From: a virus
Taxonomy: Duplodnaviria > Heunggongvirae > Uroviricota > Caudoviricetes
Reading direction: 5' to 3' (one strand)
DNA: 39,415 nt
IMG/VR virus record: IMGVR_UViG_2778261630_000006
Location: 1 to 39,415 of that record
The notes below the pieces were generated by a model that saw nothing but the letters and a program-made list of their open reading frames with translations, made no database searches and was not told the origin of the DNA. A program made the position numbers and the translations under genes. Positions 21,499 through 38,096 of the stretch are shown piece by piece (positions within the stretch are counted from its first letter, which is position 1; each line of letters begins with the position of its first letter).

Positions 21499-21971
21499 AC
21501 CTCAATCTCTCTGACCGTTCCGCCCGCTTCTTTGAATTTTGCAATCAGGCTGTCAGCCTTATGCTCGAACTGACCATAACCAGCGCCCGGCAGTGAAGCC
21601 CAGATATTGCTGCAACGGTCGATTGCCTGACGGATATCACCGCGATCAATCATCGGTAAAGCGCCACGCTCTTTAATCTGCTGCAGAGCTACAGCGTCCT
21701 GGCTTTCTGGAGAAAAATCTTTCAGGCCAAGCTGTTTACGGTAAGCATCCCACCAGCGTAAAAGAAGCTGGTAACGTCCGGCGGCTGTTGATTTGAGTTT
21801 GGGGTTTAGCGTGACAAGTTTGCGAGGGTGATCGGAGTAATCAGTGAATAGCTCTCCGCCAACAATGACGTCATAACCATGATTTCTGGTTTTCTGTCGT
21901 CCGTTATCAGTTCCCTCTGACCACGCCAGCATATCGAGGAACGCCTTACGTTGATTATTGATTTCCACCAT
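21495..21971 (-). CDS. R: Endolysin R (lytic transglycosylase)
   Basis: Translation nearly identical to lambda R as recalled. Confidence 0.95.
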
Positions 21972-22278
21972 CTTCTACTCCGGCTTTTTTAGCAGCGAAG
22001 CGTTTGATAAGCGAACCAATCGAGTCAGTACCGATGTAGCCGATGAACACGCTCGTTATATAAGCGAGATTGCTACTTAGTCCGGCGAAGTCGAGAAGGT
22101 CACGAATGAACCAGGCGATAATGGCGCACATCGTTGCGTCGATTACTGTTTTTGTAAACGCACCGCCATTATATCTGCCGCGAAGGTACGCCATTGCAAA
22201 CGCAAGGATTGCCCCGATGCCTTGTTCCTTTGCCGCGAGAATGGCGGCTAACAGGTCATGTTTTTCTGGCATCTTCAT
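21955..22278 (-). CDS. S: Holin S (class I, dual-start MKM)
   Basis: Translation matches lambda S107/S105, including the Met-Lys-Met dual start. Confidence 0.95.
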
Positions 22279-22575
22279 GTCTTACCCCCAATAAGGGGAT
22301 TTGCTCTATTTAATTAGGAATAAGGTCGATTACTGATAGAACAAATCCAGGCTACTGTGTTTAGTAATCAGATTTGTTCGTGACCGATATGCACGGGCAA
22401 AACGGCAGGAGGTTGTTAGCGCAACCTCATGCCACCCGCTTTCACGAAGCCAGCCATTGCGCTGGTTTTCTTTTATGCAAAGCACACCGCACCGTAGCCA
22501 CAGCGGATAAGGTGATTATTTTGGTCTGTCTGGTATTTGGTTTGATGTGCTTTCAGAAAGGCCGTGCTTAAAACG

Positions 22576-22604
22576 CAAAAAGCCCCGAGCTATTAACTCA
22601 GGGC
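22576..22604 (-). terminator. Late-operon terminator tR' (Q antitermination target)
   Basis: GCCCUGAG-loop-CUCGGGGC hairpin followed by UUUUU on the minus-strand transcript, about 30 bp downstream of the putative pR' -10. Confidence 0.65.
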
Positions 22605-22640
22605 TTTATTTAACGAGTGCATTTATCCATCGTTGAGTCA

Positions 22641-22669
22641 AATTTACCCAACTTTATTCAAAAAGTCAA
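22641..22669 (-). promoter_or_regulatory. Late promoter pR' with Q-binding region
   Basis: Minus-strand TTGACT, 17-bp spacer, TAAATT, immediately downstream of Q, as in lambda. Confidence 0.55.
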
Positions 22670-22711
22670 TATTATGCCGTAAAGATGTTGCCATCCGTGG
22701 CAATCATGCCG

Positions 22712-23335
22712 CTAACGTGTGACCGCATTCAAAATGTTGTCTGCGATTGACTCTTCTTTGTGGCATTGCACCACCAGAGCGTCATACAGCGGCTTAACAG
22801 TGCGTGACCAGGTGGGTTGGGTAAGGTTTGGGATTAGCATCGTTACAGCGCGATATGCGGCGCTTGCTGGCATTCTTGAATAGCCGACACCTTTGCATCT
22901 TCCGCACTCTTTCTCAACAACTCTCCCCCACTGCTCCGTTTTGGCTATATCAACAGCACGGCCTGTACCGTGGCAATCTCTGCATCTTGCACCCGGCGTC
23001 GCGGCACTACGGCAATAATCCGCATAAGCGAATGTTGCGAGAACTTGCAGTACCTTTGCCTTAGTATTTCCTTCGAGCTTTGCCACACCACGGTATTTCC
23101 CCGATACCTTGTGTGCAAATTGCATCAGATAGTTGATAGCCTTTTGTTTGTCGTTCTGGCTGAGTTCATGCTTACCACAGAATGCAGCCATTCCGAATCC
23201 GGCTTGTGATTGCGCCATCCCCATAGCAGCCATCACATCAGTACCGGAAAGAGAGTCAGAAGCCGTGGCCCGTGGTGAGTCACTCATCATCGGGCTTTTT
23301 GGCGAATGAAATTTGGCTACGCTTTCGAGTCTCAT
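22712..23335 (-). CDS. Q: Late antiterminator Q
   Basis: 207 aa; translation essentially matches lambda Q as recalled. Confidence 0.95.
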   Translation of the reverse strand: MRLESVAKFHSPKSPMMSDSPRATASDSLSGTDVMAAMGMAQSQAGFGMAAFCGKHELSQNDKQKAINYLMQFAHKVSGKYRGVAKLEGNTKAKVLQVLATFAYADYCRSAATPGARCRDCHGTGRAVDIAKTEQWGRVVEKECGRCKGVGYSRMPASAAYRAVTMLIPNLTQPTWSRTVKPLYDALVVQCHKEESIADNILNAVTR

Positions 23336-23520
23336 CGTCTTCCCTTTTTGCCTGGCGTGACCATCAGGACGCCGTTAACGATTACGTGACGCTCACCTTT
23401 GCTGTCTCGGTTGTACTTGAGCACTGTTCCTCTTGCGCAGGAAAGCATCCTCGCCACTTCGGTCTGATTGCCTCGTGTCTGGATAAGAAGCTCTGGTATC
23501 GTTTGAATTGTGGCGTTCAT
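23332..23520 (-). CDS. ninH: NinH-like small DNA-binding protein
   Basis: 62 aa, stop overlaps the Q start; resembles lambda NinH. Confidence 0.65.
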   Translation of the reverse strand: MNATIQTIPELLIQTRGNQTEVARMLSCARGTVLKYNRDSKGERHVIVNGVLMVTPGKKGRR

Positions 23521-37820: not shown

Positions 37821-37873
37821 GCCGATAAAGGTGTTTGAGATAAAGATGAATATCGGCAATGAATAACAATCCT

Positions 37874-37900
37874 CGCACTCGCGGGGATTTTTTTTATCTG
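37874..37900 (+). terminator. Rho-independent terminator
   Basis: CCTCGC-ACTC-GCGGGG hairpin (one G-U pair) followed by eight T. Confidence 0.65.
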
Positions 37901-37901
37901 A

Positions 37902-37925
37902 ACTCGCTACGGCGAGTTTTGTTTT
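37902..37925 (+). terminator. Second tandem terminator-like hairpin
   Basis: ACTCGC-TACG-GCGAGT followed by TTTGTTTT. Confidence 0.45.
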
Positions 37926-37928
37926 ATA

Positions 37929-38096
37929 GAGATGATAAATGCACTTCCGAGTCACAGGTGAATGGAATGGAGAGCCATTCAACAGAGTTATCGAAGCAGA
38001 GAACATCAATGACTGCTATGACCACTGGATGATATGGGCGCAGATAGCACATGCAGAAGTAACCAATATTCGAATTGAAGGACTGAAAGAACACCA
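37929..38096 (+). CDS. Small ORF (55 aa) upstream of xis
   Basis: MHFRVTGEWNGEPFNRVIEAENINDCYDHWMIWAQIAHAEVTNIRIEGLKEHQAA; not in the ORF track (under 60 aa). Weak ribosome-binding site. A CCGCC-TGAT-GGCGG hairpin plus T-run overlaps its stop. Confidence 0.35.

Follow-up and report, generated by a model that had tools for sequence, protein, structure and literature searches.

The region between the late antiterminator gene Q and the holin gene S is very probably the cassette that regulates the late genes of a P22-like lambdoid phage, in the allelic form carried by P22, HK97 and HK022. The window, that is, the whole stretch of 39,415 nucleotides that was analysed, represented a P22-like coliphage or prophage, with HZ41, APC_JM3.2 and IME10 as best matches and P22 at ~83%. 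A Q gene of the Q-lambda family was found directly upstream of the pR' hexamers and their spacer element, where Q would be expected to bind, and these were accompanied by pause and -35-like elements, a terminator and late genes on the same strand. The interval originally proposed for the promoter-terminator module, 22576-22669, bracketed it exactly.

Gene context and the late promoter pR'

The Q gene, placed at 23335-22712 on the minus strand, encoded a protein of 207 aa that was identical to lambda Q at 206 of the 207 positions (99.5%) and to P22 gp23 at 202 of the 207. This protein matched Pfam PF03589 (E = 1e-57) and, over its full length, the Q-lambda chains of PDB 7UBM and 7UBN, so that the original prediction of a lambda-type Q held. 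Q was separated from S by 433 bp, and the genes around this gap were all on the minus strand: the holin S (22278-21955, Pfam PF05106), first of the late genes, was followed by the endolysin R (21971-21495) and by Rz (21498-21061), and after Rz by P22-like small and large terminase genes and head genes. No tRNA genes were found between pR' and S, unlike the situation in phages L and Sf6. It was also observed that the Q gene contained an antisense paQ/a23 unit, located at 23035-23067 and 23268-23300 on the plus strand. The paQ/a23 promoter, with its TTGC-N6-TTGC activator site, presented one substitution relative to the annotated a23 promoter of P22, and the terminator of the unit (GCCCGTGGTGAGTCACTCATCATCGGGCTTTTT) was identical to the P22 a23 terminator.

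The -35 hexamer of pR' (P late), TTGACT at 22669-22664 on the minus strand, was identical in lambda and P22, and the -10 hexamer TAAATT (22646-22641, minus) was recovered both by the promoter scan and by the match to the qut pattern. The 17-bp spacer between them (TTTTGAATAAAGTTGGG, 22663-22647, minus), which would harbor the Q-binding element, preserved 15 of the 17 nucleotides of the lambda spacer (TATTGAATAAAATTGGG) and was identical in the alignment to those of P22, HK97 and HK022. A further TTGACT, -35-like and with the same sequence as in lambda, was placed directly 5′ of the pause element (22641-22636, minus). In the lambda pR' literature and in PMC9388147, this -35-like motif was described as the site for the repositioned sigma region 4 in the Q-loading complex. 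The sigma-dependent pause element, AACGAT at +1 to +6 (22634-22629, minus), was identical to that of lambda. By homology, transcription would start at A22634 on the minus strand, the equivalent A of P22 being marked as 'P late RNA 5' nt' in BK000583, and the polymerase would be expected to pause at +16/+17 (22619/22618, minus).

The scan for hexamers alone was not enriched, since it returned 4 promoter-like sites against 6.2 expected over 4.5 kb. The 41-nt lambda qut pattern (TTGACTNNNTGAATAAANTTGGGTAAATTTGACNCAACGAT) was matched exactly once in the window, at 22669-22629 on the minus strand, with 0 matches expected by chance, which bore out the late promoter that had been read as TTGACT-17-TAAATT. 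These comparisons supported the assignment of the site as the late promoter pR', whose homology to that of lambda extends to +23 and whose defining elements are identical; the comparison with the lambda qut region that had been suggested ended at this point, the sequences being unrelated thereafter.

Within the homologous stretch, the leader differed from that of lambda at +9, +11, +15 and +17. Position +17 was occupied by A, not G, so that the consensus pause loses its G(+1), and the position or the lifetime of the pause may therefore differ from those of lambda. It was additionally observed that the AACGA of the pause element is able to pair with UCGUU at +19 to +23 (22634-22612, minus). The CTCGTT at +18 to +23 was kept in the short leader allele as in that of lambda, although +9 to +17 differed between them, and a few contigs presented CTGGTT or CTAGTT instead, by which the AACGA/UCGUU pairing would be broken.

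The predicted tR' hairpin and leader RNA, and the spacer to S

An intrinsic terminator hairpin, the predicted tR', occupied +28 to +56 of the transcript (22607-22579, minus). This hairpin was composed of a 13-bp stem and an AAU loop (AAAGCCCUGAGUU-AAU-AGCUCGGGGCUUU), with 6 G-C among its 13 pairs, and was followed by UU GCG UUUU, the U5 run of tR' extending over 22581-22577 (minus) before the GCG UUUU. The stem started 33 nt after the end of the -10 hexamer and 27 nt after the inferred +1, in agreement with the hairpin having been predicted about 30 bp downstream of the promoter. Folding against shuffled sequences gave -18.7 kcal/mol for the hairpin alone (z = -4.9) and -23.3 kcal/mol for the 58-nt leader (z = -5.7), and 0 of 200 shuffles folded as well as the latter. 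Together with the annotation of the same sequence as tR' in P22 (BK000583) and X78401, this supported the hairpin as the first late terminator. Termination without Q may be less than 100% efficient, since only 5 U are found directly after the stem and these give way to GCG UUUU. The predicted Q-independent leader RNA would start at +1 and finish with the U5 run, which corresponds to ~58 nt (22634-22577, minus), and its predicted fold presented a small 5′ stem (+1 to +7 with +16 to +23), an A/U-rich linker and then the terminator hairpin.

Lambda 6S RNA has 194 nt, and the same counting applied to lambda placed the end of its U-tract at +193/194, matching that length. The earlier expectation of a 6S-like transcript much shorter than that of lambda was upheld (~58 nt predicted versus 194 nt). 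The description of this transcript as Q-dependent was wrong, because Q abolishes termination and the short RNA would be made when Q is absent, as a Q-independent product. The predicted ~58-nt RNA is a positional and functional analogue of lambda 6S only: no sequence alignable to 6S, which spans +24 to +170 of a ~194-nt RNA, was found after +23, and the window lacked the sequences to which the published Northern probes for lambda 6S and LPR2 hybridize, the 6S target being searched at up to 3 mismatches.

The covariation test on 18 distinct short leaders detected no changes on both sides of any pair, and 96.6% of the cells were paired, a value equal to that of shuffles; the sequences were too conserved to inform, and the hairpin was consequently left without covariation support. 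The Rfam scan of 21900-23400 at E <= 1 returned a spurious snoU85 match alone, with no family matched, and the literature search retrieved no transcriptome paper that maps a P22-type late leader.

Downstream of the module, the sequence at 22576-22450 (minus) was unrelated to lambda and common to HK97, HK022 and HK140, and more distantly to P22. It was followed at 22449-22279 (minus) by a lambda-homologous 5′ leader of the lysis genes, which included a conserved hairpin at 22433-22404 and then UUUU. Together with its tail (GGCAUGAGGUUGCGCUAACAACCUCCUGCC GUUUU, 22433-22399, minus), this second late-strand hairpin was placed ~120 nt upstream of S and was conserved in lambda and P22. The simple terminator scan requires 5 T, so that this structure was not called, and it may act as a further late terminator, downstream of tR', or as a structure for RNA processing. 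A 51-aa ORF with a GTG start (22485-22330, minus), recorded as a hypothetical protein in HK140, overlapped the conserved late-leader RNA hairpins and presented no Pfam match; it is probably not a gene. The spacer between tR' and S also carried, at 22446-22469, a plus-strand terminator-like hairpin (GAAGCCAGCCATTGCGCTGGTTTT then CTTTTATGCA) directed against late transcription. P22 retained the equivalent hairpin, its two arms longer by a C and a G, respectively, and this is a hint of selection on the structure; no plus-strand transcript needing this hairpin was identified.

Leader alleles and related late regions

The short leader had been presented as if it were an oddity, which was not borne out, since it corresponded to the standard allele of P22, HK97 and HK022 and was approximately as frequent as that of lambda. 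In the phage collection, 84 of the 122 records matching the 142-bp module carried all of it, and the remaining ones, including lambda, matched only to +23. Among 5426 complete E. coli genomes, 555 had a lambda-type qut, 333 of them with the full short module. The scan of IMG/VR with the qut core recovered at least 120 contigs and, among the matches listed, exactly two leader classes were present, 65 short and 55 lambda-like. The hairpin was retained in every short-allele leader long enough to score (69/69), and the sequence of the window from +1 to +66 was the commonest among these leaders (37/69) and aligned with those of HK97, HK022 and P22 almost without differences, while the tR' U-tract ended at +193 in 50 of the 56 long leaders. 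The two alleles shared +1 to +8 and +18 to +23 and were unrelated from +24. The short allele is, in sum, an already known and ordinary one, and lambda carries the other of two common alleles.

Promoter and spacer variants, including both spacer types, occurred with both leader alleles in the IMG/VR contigs, which argues for recombination between the qut site and the leader. Moreover, in some short-allele contigs the lambda post-tR' sequence GCACAACAGGTAAGAGCATT was found directly after the U-run, so that the short and lambda terminators are positional equivalents. A derivation of the short hairpin from lambda tR' by deletion was considered and discarded, since the CCC/GGG cores that MAFFT aligned are of a kind typical for terminators and give no basis for a claim of homology.

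The exact tR' hairpin (AAGCCCTGAGTTAATAGCTCGGGGCTTT), loop included, was also found behind other late promoters. For example, in Intestinirhabdus and Erwinia prophages it was placed behind a non-lambda Q (phrog_753) with its own short leader, and in Yokenella the Q ahead of it was a diverged lambda-type one, the initial transcribed sequence being different. The hairpin ended a lambda-6S-like body in Atlantibacter, and in the Pantoea phage AH01 (Guernseyvirinae) it was located after the endolysin gene. The search of GTDB with a free loop returned 118 matches, the majority being generic G+C hairpins from unrelated phyla, and the 8 with the loop TTAATAG were the informative ones. The occurrence of the same hairpin after other Q types indicates that it is a shared mosaic terminator cassette, with exchange at the level of a single terminator element. 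It was also observed that the Salmonella phage NM-3 (PP083692), a 54-kb Lederbergvirus, carried the short leader only from +9 on; this partial leader was fused to unrelated coding sequence, and neither a Q gene nor pR' was present directly upstream of it.

The same module has been annotated in several records. In that of P22 (BK000583), 'P late or P R'' is placed at 37852-37880 and is accompanied by a qut site, 37887 is marked as the 5′ nucleotide, and the element at 37917-37945 is labelled 't late or t R'; antiterminated by gene 23 protein action'. X78401 presents a 'late promoter region' and a 'terminator tR'' with the same hairpin sequence as the window, and in Emek a qut site and a rho-independent terminator are annotated for this module. 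P22 resembled the window in layout and nearly throughout its sequence, with the -35, spacer, -10 and pause elements and the whole of +1 to +38 identical, and carried the same stem in an equally distant terminator. However, the loop of P22 was one base longer (UUUAACCG versus UUAAUAG), its tR'-to-holin spacer was only ~88% identical to that of the window, and its lysin was of a different type, whereas the S, R and Rz of the window were lambda-type.

The Q-to-S intergenic region was 94.7-98.6% identical to those of HK140, HK544, HK106, mEp234, HK022, Sf101 and HK97, and ~88% identical to those of the P22-group Salmonella phages. As in the window, HK97, HK022, HK140, HK544 and the mEp series combined a Q of lambda type, lambda-type S/R/Rz and the short leader with its hairpin; unlike it, they are siphoviruses with other virion genes, those of the window being P22-like. 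The records of these phages have the promoter and qut annotated, but not the terminator. Lambda shared with the window Q, the promoter hexamers, the -35-like TTGACT, AACGAT, +1 to +8, +18 to +23, the region upstream of S and the lysis genes. From +24 the two sequences were unrelated, and the lambda-like sequence resumed at ~22449 (~170 bp upstream of S) and continued through S. The lambda terminator, at +193/194, is a different and branched hairpin, whereas the window is predicted to terminate at ~+58, and the lambda orf-64, 6S body and LPR2 region were absent from the window.

The proposed late switch, rival readings and significance

The sequence elements, fold, homology and distribution came directly from the analysis, and the start site, pause, termination point and Q-dependent readthrough were assigned by homology. 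In the mechanism proposed on these grounds, pR' would fire constitutively with sigma-70 RNA polymerase, sigma region 2 would re-bind the -10-like AACGAT at +1 to +6, and the polymerase would pause at about +16/+17. Without Q, the polymerase would leave the pause and terminate at the hairpin and U-run (+28 to +58), releasing the ~58-nt RNA. With Q, the protein would bind its element between the -35 and -10 hexamers and load onto the paused complex with NusA. There it would form a nozzle on the RNA-exit channel, and the 5′ end of the RNA would be threaded through this nozzle at 12-16 nt. The hairpin would then be blocked, and the polymerase would continue past tR' into S, R, Rz and the virion genes. 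PMC9388147 described the order in which Q loads and the RNA is threaded, the nozzle and the 12-16 nt, and it has been reported that the engagement of Q has to occur before the RNA reaches ~30 nt (PMC4914094). Since the first nucleotide of the hairpin (+28) would be made after Q loading, the hairpin could not form in the presence of Q, and the action of Q would be fully compatible with so close a terminator. It was reported that P22 gp23 and lambda Q are interchangeable (PMC8022706, PMC2629481), from which Q/NusA-dependent readthrough was inferred for the present cassette. Furthermore, the late promoters of 21, phi80, 82 and P22 have been reported to yield short RNAs that end by termination, as mentioned in PMC7547250 with citation of Roberts et al. 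1976.

Other readings of the region were weighed against this Q-controlled switch. Chance consensus hits could have generated the promoter-like and terminator-like matches, as the unenriched hexamer scan (4 sites versus 6.2 expected) would allow, but the expectation of 0 for the 41-nt qut pattern, the position directly after Q, conserved in hundreds of phages and prophages, and the fold z-scores of -4.9 and -5.7 leave this reading with a negligible probability. The ~240 bp missing between pR' and S relative to lambda, together with the absence of the lambda 6S and LPR2 probe targets, would fit a recent deletion of a lambda-like 6S region that resulted in defective late control in a decaying prophage. 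Such an origin is very improbable, considering that the same module is found in the viable, plaque-forming phages P22, HK97, HK022, HK140, the mEp phages and Emek, that it has its own hairpin and ~130 bp unrelated to lambda, and that the short allele is as frequent as that of lambda. It is also highly unlikely that the hairpin mainly terminates plus-strand transcription or acts as a bidirectional insulator, with the real Q-controlled terminator further downstream, such as that at 22433-22404. On the plus strand the stem is indeed followed by TTTATTT, a second conserved hairpin with UUUU, common to lambda, precedes S, and tandem late terminators are reported in lambda. Nevertheless, the scan made a terminator call at this hairpin solely for the minus strand, the flanking genes are all on this strand, the better T-run is on the late strand, and the curated P22 annotation places the hairpin on the late strand as tR', while downstream terminators would supplement tR' and not replace it.

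The ~58-nt RNA might also be a constitutive, prophage-encoded, trans-acting sRNA resembling StxS, the two leader alleles being different regulators. StxS derives from a 258-nt pR'-tR' transcript of Stx phages, which is processed to a 74-nt Hfq-dependent sRNA (PMC7547250). Like the RNA proposed here, StxS is transcribed constitutively from a late promoter and ends at tR' in lysogens; unlike it, StxS belongs to another phage system, has a longer primary transcript, is processed by RNase E and has a demonstrated sRNA function. This possibility is favored by the constitutive activity of pR' in lysogens, where terminated RNAs are abundant, by the binding of lambda 6S RNA to Hfq and its RIL-seq partners (bioRxiv 10.1101/2024.10.31.621285), by the A/U-rich single-stranded stretch predicted before the Rho-independent terminator (+24 to +27 and neighbours), and by the strong conservation of the leader across 69 contigs. 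Such a role is nonetheless improbable: the Rfam scan gave no match at E <= 1, only ~27 nt precede the hairpin, of which +1 to +8 and +18 to +23 are conserved in lambda too, and the pause element constrains +1 to +6, with +1 to +7 being paired with +16 to +23 in the fold. Moreover, the 5-U tail is short for a typical Hfq class I sRNA, recent mosaic exchange and terminator function explain the conservation equally well, and no expression or target data were found. An extension of this idea, which is quite improbable, is that the 58-nt and 194-nt leaders behind the same Q/qut are exchangeable small-RNA morons and that the 58-nt RNA, made constitutively in every lysogen of the HK97, HK022 or P22 type, targets host or phage mRNAs in trans, in the manner of StxS. 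In that case, the choice of leader allele would tune lysogen physiology and not late-gene control.

Read as the late-gene switch, the cassette is a textbook Q-antitermination unit whose short allele was already annotated in P22 records. The survey placed it within a simple pattern, in which the lambda-type qut was followed, among the matches listed, by two leader alleles only, ending at ~+58 or ~+194 and occurring at similar frequency. The region is also a clean case of mosaic exchange in which the unit exchanged is a single regulatory element, a terminator hairpin being reused behind unrelated Q types. Moreover, Q-lambda would be able to act on a terminator beginning as little as ~11 nt beyond the pause site, and the 58-nt RNA, expected in common lysogens, is a candidate for searches of late-promoter-derived sRNAs.
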